The position numbers and the translations under genes were made by a program. DNA of 32,000 nt from Erysipelotrichaceae bacterium (GTDB lineage Bacteria > Bacillota_I > Bacilli_A > Erysipelotrichales > Erysipelotrichaceae), in contig JAFRKI010000009.1 of NCBI GenBank assembly GCA_017431825.1, forward strand, positions 69,198 to 101,197, given 5' to 3'. Under the pieces are notes generated by a model. It was not told the DNA's origin. It was given only the letters and a program-made list of their open reading frames with translations, and ran no database searches. Below are positions 1,095 through 8,769 of the stretch, in pieces. Every line of letters starts with the position of its first letter. Within the stretch, counting starts at the first letter, position 1.

Positions 1095-2708
1095 ATGAAA
1101 AGTATACCAATAGTAGTAGGCATAACTGGACATAGATTACTAAGAAAAAGCGATTATCCATTGCTTAAAGAAAGAGTAAGAACTGAATTGTCTCAAATAA
1201 AGGGATTATGTCCCAATTCTTCTTTAGTATTATTAGATTCAATAGCGTCTGGAGTGGATTCTCTTTGTGCTGAAGTTGCTTTAGAACTTGGTTATGAATT
1301 AGTTGTACCGTTGCCATTTGAACAAGATGAATATACTAAAGACTTTGAGGGAGAGGATTTAATAGTCTTTAAAGAGTTAATAAATAAAGCAAGCAAGAAA
1401 TTTGAACTTACCTCTTTAAGCGAAAATAATAGAGATCATGGTTATTTAGAAGCTGGTCTTTACATAGTAAAACATTCACATATTCTTATTGCATTATGGG
1501 ATGGCGGAGAACCAAAGCCTAATGGATGTGCAACTGCCGAAGTTGTTGACTTTGCTATGAGGGGAACAGATGAATCGAAAATAGTGCCGACTCCTATTAC
1601 GACCATAATTCACATTTATGCACCGAGAGCATCTGCGAAGGAAATAAAGAACGTTGGTGAAACTACAATTTATGAGAATAAGCAGAGTTCGATGTTCGAA
1701 TGCCTGTTTATGACTGATGAATTTAATAAAGAAAGCATTAATAGTGATTATGATAATTCTCTTGTTGACGAAGATACTCTAAAAGGACTGGATGTTCAGT
1801 TGAGTTATTACAACGACTTATATAAAAAAGCAGACAGCTTATCATCTTTTTATCAGAAAAAATATCTGAGTTCTTTAAAGCTGATATCCTTACTTAGTTC
1901 TTTCCTGGCGCTTAGCTATCTTCTTTATGATGAAATGGAGCTAAAGATCATGTCTTTGGTACTGATCTGTTTGATCATCACAGTAGCTGTTTATTTGCCA
2001 ACAAGGCCGAAGAAAGGAAAGTGGCACGAGAAGTACCTATCATATAGAATGTTAGCTGAAAGTCTGAGGATTCAGTTTTTTACATTTGCATGTGATGTAA
2101 AAAGAAATGTAGCAGATTTGTTTTCTTGGTCTACCAGAGAAGGAAACAACTGGACCTATAAAGCACTTAAGGTCATAGAACCAGTTGAGATCAATAATCT
2201 GTTTAAAGACCGAAGAGTATTAGAAACATGGATAAACGAACAACTCGATTATCATAAAAAAGCATATAAGAAGAACGATGAAAGTTTAAAAAGAAACAAT
2301 ACATATTCAGATATTTTGCTGTTAATGACTGTTTCATTATATTTAATCGTTGTTATGTTGGAACTTATGTTTCCTGTTTTCATGAACAAGATATTGTTGA
2401 CTCTAAACAATGAATTTCTGTTTATAAATAAGGGAACTGAACTTGATGTTAGGGGAATGTTTAAAATACTGACCGGTATCGTGGCAGCATCAGCTTTATT
2501 GTTGGCAAATTATTATGGTAAACTATCTTTAGATAATAAAGAAGATGATCACAAAAGATACACATCATTATATGTGGAGGCAAACAAAGTTTTAAGCAAT
2601 CCTACAGATGAACTTATTTGGGAATTAGCCAGAGAAGAGTTATTAATCAACAGCGCCTGGCTAACATATTCAAAGGAGAACGATTCAAACTTCTTAGATA
2701 TATTTTAG
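1095..2708 (+). CDS. SLOG-like nucleotide-sensor domain fused to two SLATT-like 2TM modules (4 TM helices); predicted membrane effector
   Basis: Residues 1-160 read IVVGITGHR...SGVDSLCAEVALELG...ILIALWDGGEPKPNGCATAEVVDFA, a Rossmann-like SLOG (LOG/DprA/YpsA-type) glycine-rich signature. TM pairs lie at about aa 259-301 and 404-473. The first pair is followed by WHEKYLSYRMLAESLRIQFF and the second is preceded by QLDYHKKAYKKNDESLKR, which are SLATT-type flanking helices. Confidence 0.55.
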   Translation: MKSIPIVVGITGHRLLRKSDYPLLKERVRTELSQIKGLCPNSSLVLLDSIASGVDSLCAEVALELGYELVVPLPFEQDEYTKDFEGEDLIVFKELINKASKKFELTSLSENNRDHGYLEAGLYIVKHSHILIALWDGGEPKPNGCATAEVVDFAMRGTDESKIVPTPITTIIHIYAPRASAKEIKNVGETTIYENKQSSMFECLFMTDEFNKESINSDYDNSLVDEDTLKGLDVQLSYYNDLYKKADSLSSFYQKKYLSSLKLISLLSSFLALSYLLYDEMELKIMSLVLICLIITVAVYLPTRPKKGKWHEKYLSYRMLAESLRIQFFTFACDVKRNVADLFSWSTREGNNWTYKALKVIEPVEINNLFKDRRVLETWINEQLDYHKKAYKKNDESLKRNNTYSDILLLMTVSLYLIVVMLELMFPVFMNKILLTLNNEFLFINKGTELDVRGMFKILTGIVAASALLLANYYGKLSLDNKEDDHKRYTSLYVEANKVLSNPTDELIWELAREELLINSAWLTYSKENDSNFLDIF

Positions 2709-2716
2709 GAATTACA

Positions 2717-4132
2717 ATGAACCACGAAGTTTTTATAAGTTATTCCAATAAGGATAAGAACGTAGCAGATGCGATAGTTAACCGCTTTGAATCCAGCGGT
2801 TTAAAGTGTTGGTATGCTCCAAGAGATATCAATCCTGGAAGCGAATGGGCGGAATCGATCGTTGAAGCCATTAAAGCTTCGAAAAAGATGATCCTTATCT
2901 TTACTGATTATTCCAACGCTTCAAAGCAGGTAGTCAGAGAAGTAGAGACAGCGATCAACAGCGGAGTGGTCGTTATTCCTTTTAAACTGACAGCCAGTAA
3001 TCCGTCAGGATCCATGGAGTATTACCTTTCGACTCTGCACTGGCTTGATGCCATGGATAAACCTTTAGACAACGCCATCAATGATCTGAAGGAAATGGTC
3101 ATAAATATTGATGCTTCAAAAAGCTATGTGCAGAAAAAGAAAAGAAATTTGAAGACAATCATAATATCATCGATACTAGTTTTAGCCATGATAGTTTCCG
3201 GTATCTTCTTCATAATTACAAATAAGAACAAGAATAATGAAAGTGATGTTTTTATCCCTGTTGATTATAATGAAAAGAATATTAATAATTGTTTGAATAG
3301 CAACCTTGTCTACTATTATGATGATGAAAACCTTTATTATAATTATTTATTATGGTTAGATGACGAAGGAGAAACCATTCCATATCCTCTTATCTTTGTT
3401 ACAAGTGAAAGAGATTTTTTATGGAATATAGCTGATCCTAATAAACTTGTTTGTATTAAACAAACGTCAAACTTTGCTGCTACAAAAGATTTTATATTTG
3501 ATGCTCCTGATAGCGGAGGCATCATTAGACATGATGTTTTGTCTGGTGAAGAAATAACTATTTATACTAATAACTGTTCAAATCTTTTAATTAACGGGGA
3601 TTGGTTGTTGTTTATTGATCTTTCTAATAATCAATTAATGAGAATAAGCTTTGATGGGTCTATAGTTGAACAATTTGACGGAGTATATGCAAGAAGTTTC
3701 TTTGTACATGATAAGAGAATCTTTTTTATTTCCAATGACGGTACTTTATGTATTTATGATAGCGGAGATATAATAAATACAAATAATAACAATATTATAA
3801 ATATGTGTTATGGCGACAGCAATTTATATCTTTACTGTTCAGTGGGCAACGGGATATATAGTGTTCCAATCAAAAGAAGGGAAGCTTTGCCAGAATACAT
3901 AACATCCATTGAAGATGAATTGACCTTTGACTTTACATACTGGAACAACAAACTATATTATATTAACGAAGATAAAAAAATACATGAATTAGATTTAATA
4001 ACCAAGGCAGATCATACAATAAGTACCCAGTATGAATTTGCTGTAGATATTAGTATTGTTAACGGAAGTATTTATGTAATGACGGCAGATTCGGAGAACA
4101 ACGCATATATTGAAATAATTGAGTTACAATGA
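2717..4132 (+). CDS. TIR domain - single TM - beta-propeller-like (DUF5050/TolB-like) protein, paralog 1
   Basis: The start is taken at the ATG at 2717 (MNHEVFISYSNKDK...), after an AGGA at -11 and 8 nt past the upstream stop. The 2618 start in the ORF track would overlap the previous gene by 91 nt. The TIR_2-type motifs are FISYSNKD, CWYAPRDINPG, IFTDYSNASKQVVREVETAI (candidate catalytic Glu about E75) and HWLDA. A TM helix lies at about aa 147-168, preceded by KKKRNLK. The C-terminal roughly 290 aa carries about 6 repeats such as NGDWLLFIDLSNNQLMRISFDGS and WNNKLYYINEDKKIHELDL. Confidence 0.7.
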   Translation: MNHEVFISYSNKDKNVADAIVNRFESSGLKCWYAPRDINPGSEWAESIVEAIKASKKMILIFTDYSNASKQVVREVETAINSGVVVIPFKLTASNPSGSMEYYLSTLHWLDAMDKPLDNAINDLKEMVINIDASKSYVQKKKRNLKTIIISSILVLAMIVSGIFFIITNKNKNNESDVFIPVDYNEKNINNCLNSNLVYYYDDENLYYNYLLWLDDEGETIPYPLIFVTSERDFLWNIADPNKLVCIKQTSNFAATKDFIFDAPDSGGIIRHDVLSGEEITIYTNNCSNLLINGDWLLFIDLSNNQLMRISFDGSIVEQFDGVYARSFFVHDKRIFFISNDGTLCIYDSGDIINTNNNNIINMCYGDSNLYLYCSVGNGIYSVPIKRREALPEYITSIEDELTFDFTYWNNKLYYINEDKKIHELDLITKADHTISTQYEFAVDISIVNGSIYVMTADSENNAYIEIIELQ

Positions 4133-5553
4133 ACCACGAAGTATTTATAAGTTATTCAAACAAGGACAAAAATGTGGCAGATGCGATAGTAAATCGCTTT
4201 GAATCCGGTGGTTTAAAGTGTTGGTATGCGCCTAGAGACATTAATCCTGGAAACGAATGGGCTGAATCTATTGTCAAGGCCATTAAAGCTTCAAAGACCA
4301 TGGTCCTTATTTTTACTGATTATTCTAATGCTTCAAAACAGGTAATTAGAGAAGTTGAAACTGCTATCAATAATGGAGTTGCCATTATTCCTTTCAAACT
4401 GACCGCCAGTAAGCCGTCAGGATCCATGGAATACTACCTTTCGACTTTACATTGGCTAGATGCCATGAACACCCCTCTAGACAATGCTATAAATGATTTG
4501 AAAGAAATGGCTCAAAATTTGAATAATTCAAAAAGTTTTGTTCAGAAAAAGAAGAAGAACAAAAAGACAATTATTATCACGTCAATACTGATTGTAGCTT
4601 TGATAGTTATCGGAATCTTCTTCATAATTTCAAATAAGAACAACAATAAAGAAAGCGATGTATTTATCCCTGTTGATTACTGTGAAAAGAATATAAACTA
4701 TTGTTTAAGTAAAAATGTTGTCTATTATTATGACAATGAAAACTTCTATTTATGCTATTTATATAATGGTGAAGACGGTATTTCATATCCATTACCTACC
4801 TCTATGGTTTTGGATATGAAAGAGAGTGATTTTTCTAAGGACGCAAATTTTGCAAATTATTTCGTTGCTCTTAATCCTTTCTTTAGTTGTGCGGCAACAA
4901 AAGATTACATTTTTATAGCTAACTCCAAAGGAGTTATTAGATATGAAGTATCTTCTGAAGAAGAAATAACCGTATATAATAAAGACGCTGAGAATTTATG
5001 TATTAATGGAGATTGGCTATTATTCATAGATTCAGATACAAAACAATTAATGAGAGTAAATTTCGATGGTTCGAAAATTGAAACTTTTAATGATGTTTAT
5101 GCAACGAGTTTCTTTATCCATGATAATAGAATTTATTTTATTTCCAATGATGAGGAATTATGCATATATGATAAAGGAGTAATAACAAAAGCCGACATAC
5201 AAGGCGGTTTCAGCCAAATGTGTTTTGACAATGATAATAGTATTTATGTATTTAATGGTTATAATAGGGCTTTTTACAGAATAGATCTAGATGGTAGCTT
5301 TAATCCTGAATTAGTCTATGTGTCCGAGAATACAATAGTTCCGTGGAATCTGTCCTTTTGGAATGGGAATCTTTATTATTCAGACATAGATTATAGAATC
5401 TGTGAACTCGACTTAGAAACTCAGCGGATAAATGATGTTCCAACAGAGCATAAGTATACAGTTATATTTAATATTATTGATGGACATATTTATGCCTTTA
5501 CCATGGATGAAATTTCAAAATATGAATATACAGAAATAATTGAATTACAGTAA
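4129..5553 (+). CDS. TIR domain - single TM - beta-propeller-like protein, paralog 2
   Basis: The architecture matches 2717..4132. Its ATG overlaps the upstream stop (ATGA at 4129-4132). By hand count the TIR part is about 90% identical to paralog 1 (12 differences in the first 125 aa). The C-terminal repeat domain is much more diverged, but both end in EIIELQ. Confidence 0.7.
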   Translation: MNHEVFISYSNKDKNVADAIVNRFESGGLKCWYAPRDINPGNEWAESIVKAIKASKTMVLIFTDYSNASKQVIREVETAINNGVAIIPFKLTASKPSGSMEYYLSTLHWLDAMNTPLDNAINDLKEMAQNLNNSKSFVQKKKKNKKTIIITSILIVALIVIGIFFIISNKNNNKESDVFIPVDYCEKNINYCLSKNVVYYYDNENFYLCYLYNGEDGISYPLPTSMVLDMKESDFSKDANFANYFVALNPFFSCAATKDYIFIANSKGVIRYEVSSEEEITVYNKDAENLCINGDWLLFIDSDTKQLMRVNFDGSKIETFNDVYATSFFIHDNRIYFISNDEELCIYDKGVITKADIQGGFSQMCFDNDNSIYVFNGYNRAFYRIDLDGSFNPELVYVSENTIVPWNLSFWNGNLYYSDIDYRICELDLETQRINDVPTEHKYTVIFNIIDGHIYAFTMDEISKYEYTEIIELQ

Positions 5554-5623
5554 ACTGTGTTTTAATAATTTTTATTTGTGAAAGTACTTATGTTTGATTG
5601 TTAATGAGAATAGGAAAGAGATT

Positions 5624-6349
5624 ATGACTACTATTATTGTTTTTTTAGCAGTATTGCCATCACTTGTATTGTTATTCTACATTTATAAAAGAGACTCAAT
5701 TAACAAGGAACCGAAGAGTCTTTTATTAAAATTGTTTGTCCTTGGTTGCTTATCGGTTATTCCTATAATAATAGCTGAATTTTTTGTTGTGGATTTAATG
5801 GATATTTATATTTTCGATAATACTTTATATAATCTTGTGGATGCTTTCGTTTGTGCTGCTTTGGTTGAAGAATCGATTAAATTCATCGTTACAAAATTGA
5901 CTATTTGGAAAAACAAAGCTTTTGATTCAACATTTGATGGAATGGTCTACTGTGCTTTTGTATCAATGGGCTTTGCCACGGTAGAAAACATAATATACTG
6001 CCTTTTCTTTGGCCTACCTACAGTTTTTTCTCGAATGTTTACTTCTATACCCGGCCATTTTTCTTTTGCTATTGTGATGGGCTTTTTCATATCAAAAGCC
6101 AAATATGAAGAGACCAAAGGCAAAAAACAAGAAATAAACACTAACAAAAGTAGAAAACTTCTAGCGTGTTCATTAATTATCCCTGTTATTCAACATGGAT
6201 TCTATGATTTTTGTTTGGTTCAAGATAGCAGAGTCCTGTTTTTTGTATTTATCCTAGTAGTTGTTTTCTCGTATTTAATAATTCTCATTATTGTGCATAG
6301 AGAACATAAAAGGGACACTTTGTTTTATGAAGACGATAGATTATTGTAA
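5624..6349 (+). CDS. PrsW-family intramembrane metalloprotease
   Basis: This is a polytopic membrane protein. Its N-terminus LPSLVLLFYIYKRDSINKEPKSLL, the motif VEESIKF (EExxK) and the motif QHGFYDF (HxxxD) are the PrsW signature motifs. I prefer the ATG at 5624, after AGGAAAGAG, over the TTG at 5594. Confidence 0.65.
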   Translation: MTTIIVFLAVLPSLVLLFYIYKRDSINKEPKSLLLKLFVLGCLSVIPIIIAEFFVVDLMDIYIFDNTLYNLVDAFVCAALVEESIKFIVTKLTIWKNKAFDSTFDGMVYCAFVSMGFATVENIIYCLFFGLPTVFSRMFTSIPGHFSFAIVMGFFISKAKYEETKGKKQEINTNKSRKLLACSLIIPVIQHGFYDFCLVQDSRVLFFVFILVVVFSYLIILIIVHREHKRDTLFYEDDRLL

Positions 6350-6845
6350 AAAGATTTTTTATGAAGCAAGTTGTTTTTATGAAGAGTCAAGTTCTACTTT
6401 TGAAAAGGTTTTAAAGTGTTCTCTATATTATGACGAAAATAACCAACCAGTTTTAGAACGTGATGCATTTTATTATTTCACATTTGTAATTGTTAATGGT
6501 GTTTTTGCTTGCGAATTATTTCTAAAGTCATTGATTTGTTACAAAACAAATAACGAGATTCAGGCAAATAGAACTCATTCATTAAAGAAACTAATCAATC
6601 TGTTAAGCAAAGATGATAGGGAAATAATAATGGAGACATTTGACAAGAACGAAATAGATGAAAGCAGTTTTAATTCCAAAATTGATGAAATTGATACAGC
6701 TTTCGTTGATTGGAGATATGTTTTTGAGGAAGGAAAGCACAGGTCGGTTGATTTAGTATTCTTGGATCATTTGCTTGGAATCTTAAGGTACATTGCCACT
6801 GAGGCATTTGAAAATGATAATAAAAAGCATTCAGATCCGGTCTGA
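6327..6845 (+). CDS. hypothetical all-alpha protein, tentatively HEPN-like
   Basis: The start is taken at the ATG at 6327 (MKTIDYCKK), overlapping the prsW-like stop by 23 nt. The motifs ACELFLKSLI ... NRTHSLKKLINLL ... FVDWRYVFE resemble HEPN-type helices. A canonical Rx4-6H spacing is not evident. Confidence 0.3.
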   Translation: MKTIDYCKKIFYEASCFYEESSSTFEKVLKCSLYYDENNQPVLERDAFYYFTFVIVNGVFACELFLKSLICYKTNNEIQANRTHSLKKLINLLSKDDREIIMETFDKNEIDESSFNSKIDEIDTAFVDWRYVFEEGKHRSVDLVFLDHLLGILRYIATEAFENDNKKHSDPV

Positions 6846-6850
6846 ATGCT
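6828..6850. terminator. hairpin between convergent genes (bidirectional terminator candidate)
   Basis: GCATTCAGA-tccgg-TCTGAATGC forms a perfect 9-bp stem spanning the TGA stop at 6843-6845, followed by TTTAAAT. Confidence 0.5.
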
Positions 6851-6861
6851 TTAAATACAGT

Positions 6862-7167
6862 TTAATCGTTTCTGTCGGTCTGTTTATAATCCAACGGCAC
6901 GATGGCCAGCGTTTTTCCTAATGCGAGTAGCACTTTCAATACCGTGTCGATCCTTGGAGAAGTATGGCCTTTTTCCATTCTGGCAATTACCGGCTGGCTT
7001 ACTCCGCATAATTCCTCGAGTTCTTTCTGACTGATCTTTTTTTCGTTACGGGCTTTGATCAGTTCACACATTAAAGCAACTCTCAGATCGCTTTCGGCAA
7101 TTTCTTCAGGCGTGAATATCTCTTTTTCTACTTCTTCCCAGCTTTGACCTATAGGGCTGTTTTTCAT
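6862..7167 (-). CDS. XRE-family helix-turn-helix antitoxin (HigA-like)
   Basis: KKISQKELEELCGVSQPVIARMEKGHTSPRIDTVLKVL is a classic XRE HTH. The gene overlaps the upstream toxin gene by 4 nt. Confidence 0.8.
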   Translation of the reverse strand: MKNSPIGQSWEEVEKEIFTPEEIAESDLRVALMCELIKARNEKKISQKELEELCGVSQPVIARMEKGHTSPRIDTVLKVLLALGKTLAIVPLDYKQTDRND

Positions 7168-7508
7168 TCTCCGTCACCTCTTTCTTTTATCTCTTTCAGT
7201 TCTTTCTTCGCACGTAAGATCTCTCTTCGCGGTGTCTTTTGAGTATTTTTTATAAAATGATGCAACAGGTAGTAGCTTTCTTCACTTCCGGCAACGAATA
7301 GTATCCTGTCTCTTAATGGCCTCAGTTCCCATATTTCATCCTGAAGATGCCTGACAAACGGCATATCTGCCTTGGTTCCTTGCATCTCAAGGATCTTGAT
7401 GTATTCCCGGATCTTTTCAAGTTTTATGCGGGCATCTTTTCCATTCTGGTCAGCCAGTTCCTTAAGATATTCCCTGAACGGCTGTTTTCCGTTTCTGTCT
7501 CTATACAG
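7164..7508 (-). CDS. Gp49/HigB-like (RelE/ParE superfamily) toxin; the start codon is unclear
   Basis: The ORF track starts at the ATG at 7385. The same frame stays open up to a TAA at 7541..7539. That upstream stretch encodes LYRDRNGKQPFREYLKELADQNGKDARIKLEKIREYIKILE, the usual N-terminal half of Gp49-like toxins. An AAAGGAGAAG Shine-Dalgarno lies at 7519..7510. The only start-like codon after it is the CTG at 7508..7506. Confidence 0.55.
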   Translation of the reverse strand: MYRDRNGKQPFREYLKELADQNGKDARIKLEKIREYIKILEMQGTKADMPFVRHLQDEIWELRPLRDRILFVAGSEESYYLLHHFIKNTQKTPRREILRAKKELKEIKERGDGE

Positions 7509-7683: not shown

Positions 7684-8769
7684 ATGGAAAACAGAGTATA
7701 CAACTTTGCAGCCGGACCATCGATGCTGGCAGACGATGTTCTGATCAGAATGAAGGAAGAACTTTTCAATTATAAAGATACGGGCATGTCGGTGATGGAG
7801 ATGTCACACCGTTCAAAGATCTATCTGAAGATCTTCGAAGAGACCAAGGATACCTTGAGAAGAGTCATGGATATCCCGGAAGATTACGAGATCCTTTTCA
7901 TGCATGGCGGAGCGACCGGACAGTTTGCAGCCATCGGTCTTAACATCCTTAAAGGAAACAAAGCCGACTATGTCATTACCGGCAACTTTTCCAAGAAAGC
8001 TGCTCAGGAAGCGGCAAAATACGGCGAAGTCCACATCGCTTATGATGGCAAGGACAACAACTATTCCCATATACCTCTTCAGGATGAACTGGGTCTTTCA
8101 CCCGATGCCAGGTATGTCCATATCTGTGCCAACAACACCATTTTCGGGACCGAATGGAAGTCTTTCCCTGATGTCAAAGGTAAGATACTGATCGCCGATA
8201 TGAGTTCCGATATCCTTTCAAAAAAGGTAAATGTCAAAGACTTCGGTATGATCTATGCCGGAGCCCAGAAGAATATGGGCATAGCCGGAATAGCCGTCGT
8301 CATCATCCATAAGAGCCTCATCAGCGAAGCTCTGGCGGATACGCCTGCCGTTCTTTCCTATGAACTGATGCAGAAGAACGATTCCATGTACAATACCCCG
8401 GCTACCTATCCGATCTATGTCTTAGGCAAGGTGCTGGAATGGATCGAAGAGATCGGCGGTCTTGAGGAAATGGAAAGAAGGAACAGGGCCAAGGCAGCAG
8501 TCCTCTATGACTATCTTGACTCTCAGGCTTTCTATAGACCGCATGCGGAAAAGGACAGCAGATCGCTCATGAACGTCACCTTCACGACACCTGATCCGGA
8601 ACTCGATGTCTTATTCGCAAGCGAAGCAGCCAAACAGGGTCTGGTGAACCTGAAGGGTCACAGACTGGTGGGAGGTCTCAGAGCATCGATATACAATGCG
8701 ATGCCTTTGGCAGGCGCGGAGAAACTGGTAAGCTTCATGAGGGACTTTGCGAAGGAGAACGATAAATGA
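7684..8769 (+). CDS. serC: phosphoserine aminotransferase
   Basis: MENRVYNFAAGPSMLADDVL...GAQKNMGIAG...LKGHRLVGGLRASIYNAMP are canonical SerC motifs, including the PLP Lys in AQKN. Confidence 0.9.
   Translation: MENRVYNFAAGPSMLADDVLIRMKEELFNYKDTGMSVMEMSHRSKIYLKIFEETKDTLRRVMDIPEDYEILFMHGGATGQFAAIGLNILKGNKADYVITGNFSKKAAQEAAKYGEVHIAYDGKDNNYSHIPLQDELGLSPDARYVHICANNTIFGTEWKSFPDVKGKILIADMSSDILSKKVNVKDFGMIYAGAQKNMGIAGIAVVIIHKSLISEALADTPAVLSYELMQKNDSMYNTPATYPIYVLGKVLEWIEEIGGLEEMERRNRAKAAVLYDYLDSQAFYRPHAEKDSRSLMNVTFTTPDPELDVLFASEAAKQGLVNLKGHRLVGGLRASIYNAMPLAGAEKLVSFMRDFAKENDK

Follow-up and report, generated by a model that had tools for sequence, protein, structure and literature searches.

A candidate Thoeris-like operon of membrane-anchored TIR proteins with predicted outward-facing beta-propellers beside a SLOG-SLATT gene in an Erysipelotrichaceae bacterium

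We analysed a 32,000-nucleotide stretch (the window) of contig JAFRKI010000009.1, assembly GCA_017431825.1 (forward-strand positions 69,198 to 101,197), from an Erysipelotrichaceae bacterium known as a rumen or gut metagenome-assembled genome (MAG), focusing on two paralogous genes for TIR proteins and the gene directly upstream of them, all on the forward strand. TIR1 (2717..4132) encodes 471 aa and TIR2 (4129..5553) encodes 474 aa, and the start of TIR2 overlaps the stop codon of TIR1 in a shared 4-nt ATGA; the gene models and coordinates of both were found to be correct. The upstream gene (1095..2708, 537 aa), a candidate effector or receiver gene of a SLOG-SLATT protein, ends 8 nt before TIR1. 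Given these intergenic gaps of 8 nt and -4 nt, SLOG-SLATT, TIR1 and TIR2 almost certainly share one transcript and are translationally coupled. Exact matches to the three products were present at NCBI as 'TIR domain-containing protein' (MBR0461910 and MBR0461911) and 'hypothetical protein' (MBR0461909).

An earlier note on this DNA, made from its letters, had placed an N-terminal TIR domain in both paralogs, and the Pfam scan bore this out. The domain, which is predicted to be cytoplasmic, occupies residues 1-135 of each protein (2717..3121 in TIR1 and 4129..4533 in TIR2), and the profile TIR_2 (PF13676) covered residues 5-115 of both, with E values of 4.4e-21 and 5.6e-21, respectively, a score of 76 bits against a cut-off of 28, and a match that spanned profile positions 1-111 of 122. 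Glu75, which lies in an REVE motif and occupies the usual catalytic position, did not vary among 48 aligned relatives; E75, as numbered in PMC7075850, is the position of the NADase catalytic residue. The closest solved sequences to the TIR domain of TIR1 were TIR-STING (6wt6), Hydra TRR2 (4w8h) and PdTIR (3h16). In an AlphaFold2 model of TIR1, built from 48 sequences and having a mean predicted local distance difference test (pLDDT) score of 80, this domain was modelled with pLDDT above 90. As judged from their sequences, the TIR domains of TIR1 and TIR2 are more likely to be enzymatic than to serve as adaptor scaffolds.

Both proteins continue with the basic patch (QKKKRNLK or QKKKKNKK, residues 139-146) and the one hydrophobic helix that the earlier note had described. 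In TIR1 (3131..3220) the patch QKKKRNLKT at residues 139-147 runs into the predicted transmembrane (TM) helix IIISSILVLAMIVSGIFFIIT at residues 148-168, and in TIR2 (4543..4632) the patch QKKKKNKKT precedes a helix at the same residues. This segment was the only hydrophobic one in each protein, with Kyte-Doolittle means over 19 residues of 2.84 (TIR1) and 3.26 (TIR2), and the AlphaFold2 model of TIR1 placed a helix at residues 145-171. Lysine and arginine were concentrated on the TIR side, with 6 residues in the N-terminal flank versus 2 in the C-terminal flank of the TIR1 helix, and 7 versus 2 in TIR2, and neither protein had an N-terminal signal peptide.

The same arrangement was seen in the wider family. 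A TM helix directly followed the TIR domain in approximately 117 of the 120 best homologs, its position being conserved and its sequence not. In the 97 homologs with a single TM helix, the mean number of lysines and arginines within 15 residues of the helix was 3.57 on the TIR side versus 1.32 on the far side, with the TIR side being richer in 87 of the 97 and poorer in 1 (Wilcoxon p = 3e-16). Where a homolog had several TM helices, their number was mostly three (14 cases), which leaves the C-terminus on the far (outer) side. TIR1 and TIR2 resemble type II (N-in/C-out) single-pass proteins in having one TM helix, no cleavable signal peptide and a positive-inside charge bias, as judged by hydropathy and charge statistics alone. 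The TIR substrate, NAD+, is cytoplasmic. Taken together, the charge bias, the odd number of TM helices, the lack of a signal peptide, the location of NAD+, and the surface-type C-terminal modules and upstream lipoprotein genes of relatives (described below) make a location of the TIR domain inside and the propeller outside the cell, which the earlier note had deduced from the positive-inside rule, well supported computationally, although not proven.

The C-terminal part of each protein is predicted to form an extracytoplasmic DUF5050-like beta-propeller, encoded at 3308..4129 in TIR1 (approximately residues 198-471; AlphaFold2, profile and Foldseek) and at 4720..5550 in TIR2 (profile search and precomputed Pfam record). 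In the TIR1 model, a low-confidence or disordered linker (residues 169-197) stands ahead of the propeller, and residues 243-469 were all-beta with a pLDDT of approximately 90, notably across residues 260-450. The secondary-structure string of this model contained about 26 strands, arranged as six well-formed blades of four strands each and a further, N-terminal blade that was poorly modelled, in agreement with the propeller of about six blades that had been proposed. All of the top 50 Foldseek matches in the PDB and BFVD were beta-propellers (E values as low as 1e-10); the best PDB matches were designed 8-bladed proteins, the WD40 domain of beta-TrCP, the YWTD domain of LRP6, BamB and YncE, with E values down to 2e-10, and the BFVD viral library likewise returned propellers.

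In a word-indexed homology search, the C-terminal domain alone retrieved nothing but the query protein, suggesting that this domain is too divergent for such a search, and a profile search was used instead. The profile of both C-terminal domains, run against 1.84 billion representative proteins at E <= 1e-3, matched 204 proteins, mostly in several stretches per protein, and PF16472 (DUF5050, 'LRP1-like_beta_prop') was present in 61 of the 61 matches that were scanned. A signal-like hydrophobic segment opened 45 of these 61 relatives, and 19 had a lipobox-like motif. The precomputed Pfam record of TIR2 lists PF16472 together with TIR and TIR_2; PF16472 was absent from a direct scan of TIR2 at E <= 0.1, the Pfam scan of TIR1 gave no direct match to it, and the propeller profile, when searched against PDB sequences, returned nothing under E 0.06. 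The earlier note had also described repeats of the type found in TolB/DUF5050-like blades. A repeat of this form, NGDWLLFIDLSNNQLMRISFDGS, is indeed present at TIR1 residues 293-315, but as sequence repeats alone these were not significant: in ungapped BLOSUM62 self-comparisons the internal repeats of the C-terminal domains were not clearly above shuffled controls, with a maximum of 63 versus a shuffle-maximum mean of 69 for TIR1, and 105 (at offset 64) versus a largest shuffle of 104 for TIR2, and the propeller was therefore tested by profile and structure instead. The DUF5050 half of the family assignment was favoured by the profile matches, whereas the relationship to TolB was dropped, as the fold matches were to generic propellers. 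By the structural model and these profile matches, the C-terminal domain is a DUF5050-like beta-propeller of 6-7 blades, of the same family as, or one closely related to, the DUF5050 (PF16472) proteins of Firmicutes and Bacteroidetes, most of which are secreted proteins or lipoproteins. In the scanned profile matches the domain was mostly joined to signal peptides, TPR, PASTA-kinase and similar modules, and not to TIR.

Over their full length TIR1 and TIR2 were 59% identical. Their TIR domains were 87% identical with a dN/dS of 0.06, indicating strong purifying selection, and identity between the propellers was 17-41% in the outer segments and approximately 60% in residues 271-360 (68% over alignment columns 293-352). 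Synonymous sites between the two genes were saturated, suggesting that the window paralogs are old. On these sequence comparisons, a conserved TIR domain combined with a diverged outer propeller would fit either two ligand specificities or the two halves of a heteromer. In assembly ERZ28655079, which represents the same strain, TIR2 was split into open reading frames (ORFs) of 237 aa and 245 aa (L186:3144-4581), a split that could stem from a frameshift, from incipient pseudogene formation or from misassembly.

The 537-aa protein encoded upstream of TIR1 was modelled by AlphaFold2 with a pLDDT of 91 and a predicted template modelling score (pTM) of 0.91. The model comprised an alpha/beta YpsA-like SLOG domain (approximately residues 1-215) and a helical, multi-TM, SLATT-like domain (approximately residues 234-528), the latter with TM-like peaks at residues 283-301, 407-425 and 452-470. 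YpsA (2nx2) was the top Foldseek match of the N-terminal domain (E 2.6e-5, TM-score 0.63 normalised to the target), followed by DprA, ShosA and LOG-like proteins. The motifs GxTGHR, GAD and GCGTAE, which are nucleotide-loop motifs of the LOG/SLOG type, were nearly invariant in the family of this protein, which comprises approximately 118 clusters of 'hypothetical proteins' of about 530 aa. A Pfam scan of 65 family members matched DUF4231, which we take to be a SLATT-clan family, in 29 members (best E 7.6e-7), YAcAr (SLOG) in 15 and SLATT_3 in 2. We assign the 537-aa protein as a SLOG-SLATT protein, the SLATT half being less certain. SLOG domains of the YpsA clade have been described as sensors of cyclic ADP-ribose (cADPR), and SLATT domains as permeability effectors gated by derivatives of ADP-ribose (ADPR) (PMC9503650). 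In several assemblies the SLOG-SLATT gene was called with a shorter start (515 aa).

Homolog searching returned hundreds of protein clusters, and a scan of one genome per species identified 251 TIR-TM-X loci, of which 79 were kept for neighbourhood analysis. These 79 loci came from Erysipelotrichaceae, Lachnospiraceae, Oscillospiraceae, Christensenellales, Coriobacteriaceae, Eggerthellaceae and others, and mostly from rumen or gut MAGs. The far-side modules of the 120 best homologs included leucine-rich repeat (LRR) domains of the LRR_5 (BspA-type) family in 53 and DUF5050 in 46, with SBP_bac_3 (P0114) and DUF285/LRR found once each; TIR-TM-LRR_5 proteins (e.g. P0014, P0019, P0030; L017:10001-11323; L084:1589-2908) and TIR-TM-DUF5050 proteins number in the hundreds in rumen and gut Firmicutes and Actinobacteria. 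The C-terminal modules swapped in behind the TM helix are typical surface or secreted types of Gram-positive bacteria. More than one TIR gene was present in 8 of the 79 loci, 6 of which had an adjacent tandem as in the window. The TIR-TM-ectodomain architecture is thus common, though unstudied, and not special to the window locus. Our literature search found no description of membrane-anchored bacterial TIR sensors, which is weak evidence, since most subscription journals lay outside its coverage.

A lipoprotein gene was located directly upstream of the TIR-TM-X gene in 16 of the 79 loci (e.g. L023:9278-9982, L044:9461-9988 and L013:9427-9987). Its product, of approximately 175-230 aa with a canonical lipobox, an acidic low-complexity linker and no Pfam family, may be an extracytoplasmic co-receptor; this gene is not present in the window. 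A soluble TIR protein of the same subfamily (180 aa, MNHDVFISYS...CWIAPRDI), having neither a TM helix nor a C-terminal domain, was encoded in phage genomes (13 IMG/VR contigs, L165-L177; e.g. L165:6001-6543), where it could serve as a decoy, in interference or in counter-defence.

A SLOG-SLATT gene adjoined the TIR-TM-X gene in 6 of the 79 TIR-seeded loci, including loci from Lachnospiraceae, Coriobacteriaceae and others, with TIR-TM-DUF5050 and TIR-TM-LRR_5 genes both among the neighbours of SLOG-SLATT, and the ectodomains in these six loci varied, with LRR_5 in two (L017 and L019) and larger C-terminal domains in the other four (L044, L013, L009 and L033). The neighbourhoods were also collected from the opposite direction, using SLOG-SLATT as the seed in metagenomes (80 loci of 587 found). 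In these 80 loci, the gene directly upstream of SLOG-SLATT often encoded an HD/RyR protein, a TIR-TM protein (e.g. L084 and L113) or a TIR-TM pair. The pairs consisted of a TIR-TM protein of approximately 390 aa and a protein of 1030-1170 aa (e.g. L133, L139, L140, L155, L160 and L094; coordinates in L133 are 2712-3872 and 3894-6989). A degenerate, TIR-like domain lay at the N-terminus of the larger protein, which also had a TM helix near residue 125. The LRR_4 and LRR_EndoS matches of the scanned neighbour set probably belong to these larger proteins. In one further locus (L151), a single TIR-TM protein of 922 aa took the position upstream of SLOG-SLATT. Membrane-anchored TIR proteins with large far-side domains are a recurrent partner of the SLOG-SLATT family.

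The HD/RyR protein (580-710 aa) was very often encoded directly upstream of SLOG-SLATT, with or without TIR genes (e.g. L015:11622-13634, L044:7444-9435 and L080:5201-6967). It combines invariant motifs of the HD-phosphohydrolase type with a C-terminal RyR repeat domain, the latter assigned by a profile match to PDB RyR repeats (E 4e-15) and by Pfam RyR in 13 of 22 members. The occurrence of an RyR-domain protein in operons with TIR, a maker of cADPR-type signals, is curious given the link between cADPR and the ryanodine receptor in animals. The last 10 kb of one viral contig (IMGVR_UViG_3300048836_000958; L164/L181) contained two large serine recombinases, a lipoprotein, a 491-aa TIR-TM protein, SLOG-SLATT and HD/RyR, and this TIR-TM/SLOG-SLATT stretch is either prophage cargo beside an integration module or adjacent host DNA.

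The placement of a TIR gene next to an effector gene with a signal-binding domain, in an adjacency that recurs in other lineages, is the arrangement of Thoeris systems. Among the closest of these is type VII, in which a TIR protein (ThsB) signals through canonical cADPR to a SLATT effector (ThsH), and in which SLATT has been experimentally implicated as a membrane-disrupting effector (bioRxiv 10.64898/2025.12.03.692087). The window shares with type VII a TIR gene beside a membrane effector, here a candidate one of SLATT type, and the proposed route from a TIR-made ADPR derivative to membrane disruption. It differs in that the window TIR proteins are anchored in the membrane and have a large domain predicted to be extracellular, that there are two TIR genes, and that the effector has an additional N-terminal YpsA-like SLOG domain; the TIR sequences tested for type VII (given in the supplement) were also, as judged by eye, unlike the CWYAPRDI subfamily. 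Type III, described as several TIRs with a SLOG-domain effector whose signalling is uncharacterised (bioRxiv 10.64898/2025.12.03.692087), likewise combines multiple TIR genes and a SLOG-containing effector in one operon. Compared by description, the window effector differs from that of type III in its SLATT-like output, and the type III TIR proteins are not described as membrane receptors in the literature consulted; the same survey mentions TM helices for effectors only, and it discarded stand-alone TIR proteins (bioRxiv 10.64898/2025.12.03.692087).

With Thoeris type I (the TIR protein ThsB and the SIR2-SLOG protein ThsA), the window shares a TIR protein as signal generator and, as receiver, a SLOG domain of the YpsA-like clade. 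The type I ThsB is a soluble protein that senses infection in the cytoplasm, and the output of ThsA is a SIR2 NADase. The window proteins matched ThsB weakly (E 2e-4 or worse) and had no match to ThsA. Like Toll-like receptors, the window proteins are predicted to be single-pass, with an ectodomain built of repeats, one TM helix and, in the cytoplasm, a TIR domain, and the TIR-TM-LRR_5 homologs, with LRRs outside, offer a closer parallel still. However, Toll-like receptors have an N-terminal LRR ectodomain, a TM helix and a C-terminal TIR domain, whereas in TIR1 and TIR2 the order is inverted (type II, with the TIR domain N-terminal), the ectodomain is a propeller rather than LRRs, and the catalytic glutamate is kept. 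The inverted order, the propeller and the enzymatic-looking TIR domain indicate that these are not Toll-like receptors, and the resemblance that the earlier note had drawn is fair as an analogy of logic and does not extend to homology or common ancestry of the whole architecture.

Considering these data together, we put at about even the chance that 1095-5553 is one operon forming a membrane-embedded Thoeris-like module, with outward-facing TIR sensors and a SLOG-SLATT effector. The computed features that enter this model are the identities of the domains, the TM helix, the bias in charge, the folds of the propeller and of the SLOG domain, and the repeated occurrence of SLOG-SLATT genes next to genes for membrane-anchored TIR proteins. 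Catalysis by TIR domains depends on self-association, as in SARM1, plant TIRs and AbTir. Combining this dependence with ADPR signals made by TIR domains, cADPR sensing by SLOG and membrane disruption by SLATT, we propose the following sequence of events. A ligand would bind the propellers outside the cell, where a short flexible linker would tether each 6-7-bladed propeller to the outer face of the membrane, and the receptors would cluster or re-orient, possibly as TIR1/TIR2 heteromers or with two separate specificities. Clustering would bring the cytoplasmic TIR domains together to form composite active sites, at which NAD+ would be turned into a cADPR-type signal derived from ADP-ribose. This signal would then be bound by the YpsA-like SLOG domain of the 537-aa protein, and the SLATT-like membrane domain of that protein would open or oligomerise, so that the membrane would be permeabilised and growth arrest or abortive infection would follow. 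From the computed features we infer the catalysis, the nature of the signal, the existence of a ligand and a role in phage defence; that phage adsorption or injection is what is sensed is speculation on our part.

A more general form of this model, which we offer only tentatively, is that receptor-type TIR proteins of gut and rumen bacteria detect a surface event with an outward propeller or LRR domain, that this clusters the TIR domains, and that their nucleotide product gates the SLOG-SLATT channel. The events envisaged at the surface include a penetrating phage tail, ejection proteins, damage to the wall or the toxin of a competitor. Such a pathway would run from outside to inside, could act before expression of the invader genome, and would be analogous in its logic to that of Toll-like receptors.

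Several observations weigh against a Thoeris-like module of this kind. PADLOC found no known system at the locus: its ThsB models matched with E values of 1.9e-4 to 1.9e-2, making the ThsB label weak, and neither ThsA nor any other model matched the 537-aa protein; the PADLOC-DB version used dates from 2023, earlier than the definition of Thoeris types III-XI. The window 537-aa protein matched SLATT_3 with E values of 2e-3 (Pfam) and 7e-5 (NCBIfam), both under the curated cut-offs. No SLOG-SLATT or HD/RyR gene was found within approximately 10 kb in 63 of the 79 TIR-TM-X loci, suggesting that the TIR receptor can do without SLOG-SLATT; many SLOG-SLATT genes, in turn, were paired with an HD/RyR protein and no TIR gene, and a search of all six frames of the window revealed no HD/RyR partner. 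The link between TIR and SLOG-SLATT is not obligatory in either direction. The flanks of 18 loci with TIR and SLOG-SLATT genes were mostly housekeeping genes with few defence genes (a count with no background baseline). Finally, the 6 cysteines that the propeller holds in approximately 300 aa are somewhat unusual for a Firmicute domain that is secreted.

It is possible, if on balance doubtful, that the architecture and topology are as described and that the module serves general transmembrane signalling rather than immunity. In that case the ectodomains would detect ligands from the environment, the host or the cell wall (for example rumen glycans, peptidoglycan fragments or bacteriocins), and the TIR domains would produce a second messenger of nucleotide type. 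This messenger would be broken down or received by the HD/RyR protein seen at other loci, and SLOG-SLATT would act as a regulated channel. Most family members do stand alone amid housekeeping genes, their ectodomains are of the kinds that gut Firmicutes use in surface binding, a lipoprotein partner is conserved, and the HD-type phosphohydrolase partner is similar to enzymes that degrade the messenger in other second-messenger systems. However, the experimentally characterised bacterial pairs of TIR with SLOG or SLATT, among those found in our literature search, are all anti-phage, the window copy lies in a low-GC island with a toxin-antitoxin pair, and one relative adjoins prophage recombinases; GmrSD adjoins two related loci, and some loci border restriction-modification genes. 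The evidence on a defence role is mixed, as the island with its toxin-antitoxin pair and the recombinase- and GmrSD-adjacent relatives are set against the housekeeping flanks.

We regard it as unlikely that the TIR-TM-propeller proteins are self-contained suicide effectors, in which an extracellular trigger would cause NAD+ depletion and SLOG-SLATT would be independent or auxiliary. Translational coupling and the 8-nt spacing tie the window genes together, and the adjacency of SLOG-SLATT is kept across phyla and despite swaps of the ectodomain, which argues for function rather than chance. The proposal gains from the 63 relatives that have neither neighbour and from the Thoeris survey, which lists contexts of TIR NADase effectors and excludes them. 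Many bacterial TIR proteins are NADase effectors, for example those of TIR-pAgo and the TIR effectors of CBASS. That the predicted topology is wrong, the hydrophobic segment not being inserted in the membrane or the propeller being cytoplasmic, and that these are ordinary cytoplasmic or peripheral TIR sensors, is very improbable: despite the cysteines of the propeller, a topology drawn from hydropathy and charge statistics, and the existence of cytoplasmic (WD40) propellers fused to TIR in bacteria, the hydrophobicity of 2.8-3.3 over 19 residues is far over the usual TM thresholds, the helix position and charge bias are conserved across the family, the TM count is mostly odd, the families of C-terminal domain are typically extracytoplasmic, the geometry of a single TM helix does not allow both domains to be cytoplasmic, and an N-out orientation would need export of a 145-aa TIR domain without a signal peptide, away from cytoplasmic NAD+.

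To our knowledge, all of the bacterial TIR signalling systems that have been characterised (Thoeris I, II and IV-XI) sense infection inside the cell. Two neighbouring TIR proteins beside a predicted signal-gated membrane effector suggest an outside-in form of bacterial TIR signalling, and the novelty of the preferred Thoeris-like reading would lie in a membrane-anchored, outward-facing sensor and in an effector that combines SLOG with SLATT, rather than in a categorically new system. If true, an outside-facing recognition domain would add a surveillance point at the stage of adsorption, injection or envelope damage, and the logic of Toll-like receptors (ectodomain, TM helix and TIR) would have arisen in bacteria too, with an enzymatic TIR domain. 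The interchangeable ectodomains (DUF5050 propeller, BspA-type LRR and solute-binding) could be a natural system for control of TIR catalysis by outside ligands, and would provide a first functional handle on DUF5050, a domain of unknown function. The analysis also ties an unannotated family of approximately 530-aa proteins to SLOG-SLATT effectors, and connects both with a bacterial HD/RyR-domain protein. The architecture, conceptually striking as it is, is widespread and amenable to experiment; its function we wholly infer.

The operon lies in an island (1095-7400) between deoC (382-1041) and serC (7684-8769), in which GC content is 29-35% versus 46-52% elsewhere in the window (30-34% in the island against approximately 48% in the flanks by a second count). 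Downstream of TIR2 the island encodes a PrsW-family intramembrane protease (5594..6349, forward strand; Pfam PrsW E 5.9e-35; NCBIfam E 1.4e-43, under the equivalog cut-off), an ORF of 172-184 aa with a weak HEPN match (6291-6845, forward strand, probable start 6327; E 0.008), and a convergent toxin-antitoxin pair of an HTH (HigA-like) and a Gp49 (HigB-like) protein (6862-7385, reverse strand). No site lacking the island, which could have marked its ends, was found; it was present in every assembly with an identical serC that reached upstream past the toxin-antitoxin pair.

These genes were considered as conserved partners of the module and were ruled out by their absence near TIR genes in the 79 related loci, where we found no PrsW homolog and, save for two weak non-adjacent HTH matches, no homologs of the weak-HEPN ORF or the HTH/Gp49 pair; they are therefore ranked as island neighbours and not as module parts. 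The PrsW gene is possibly co-transcribed with TIR2 and probably lies outside the conserved module. It starts 41 nt after TIR2, and the juxtamembrane outer segment of the receptors (residues 171-205) shows unusually high conservation between the paralogs, at 77% identity. A PrsW-type site-1 cleavage of the TIR receptors is conceivable, although PrsW is not conserved beside the relatives. A scan of the AT-rich island for promoters and terminators was uninformative, with 38 promoter-like sites versus 31 expected. A hairpin with a 12-bp stem is located at 6824-6852, between the weak-HEPN ORF and the HTH/Gp49 pair.

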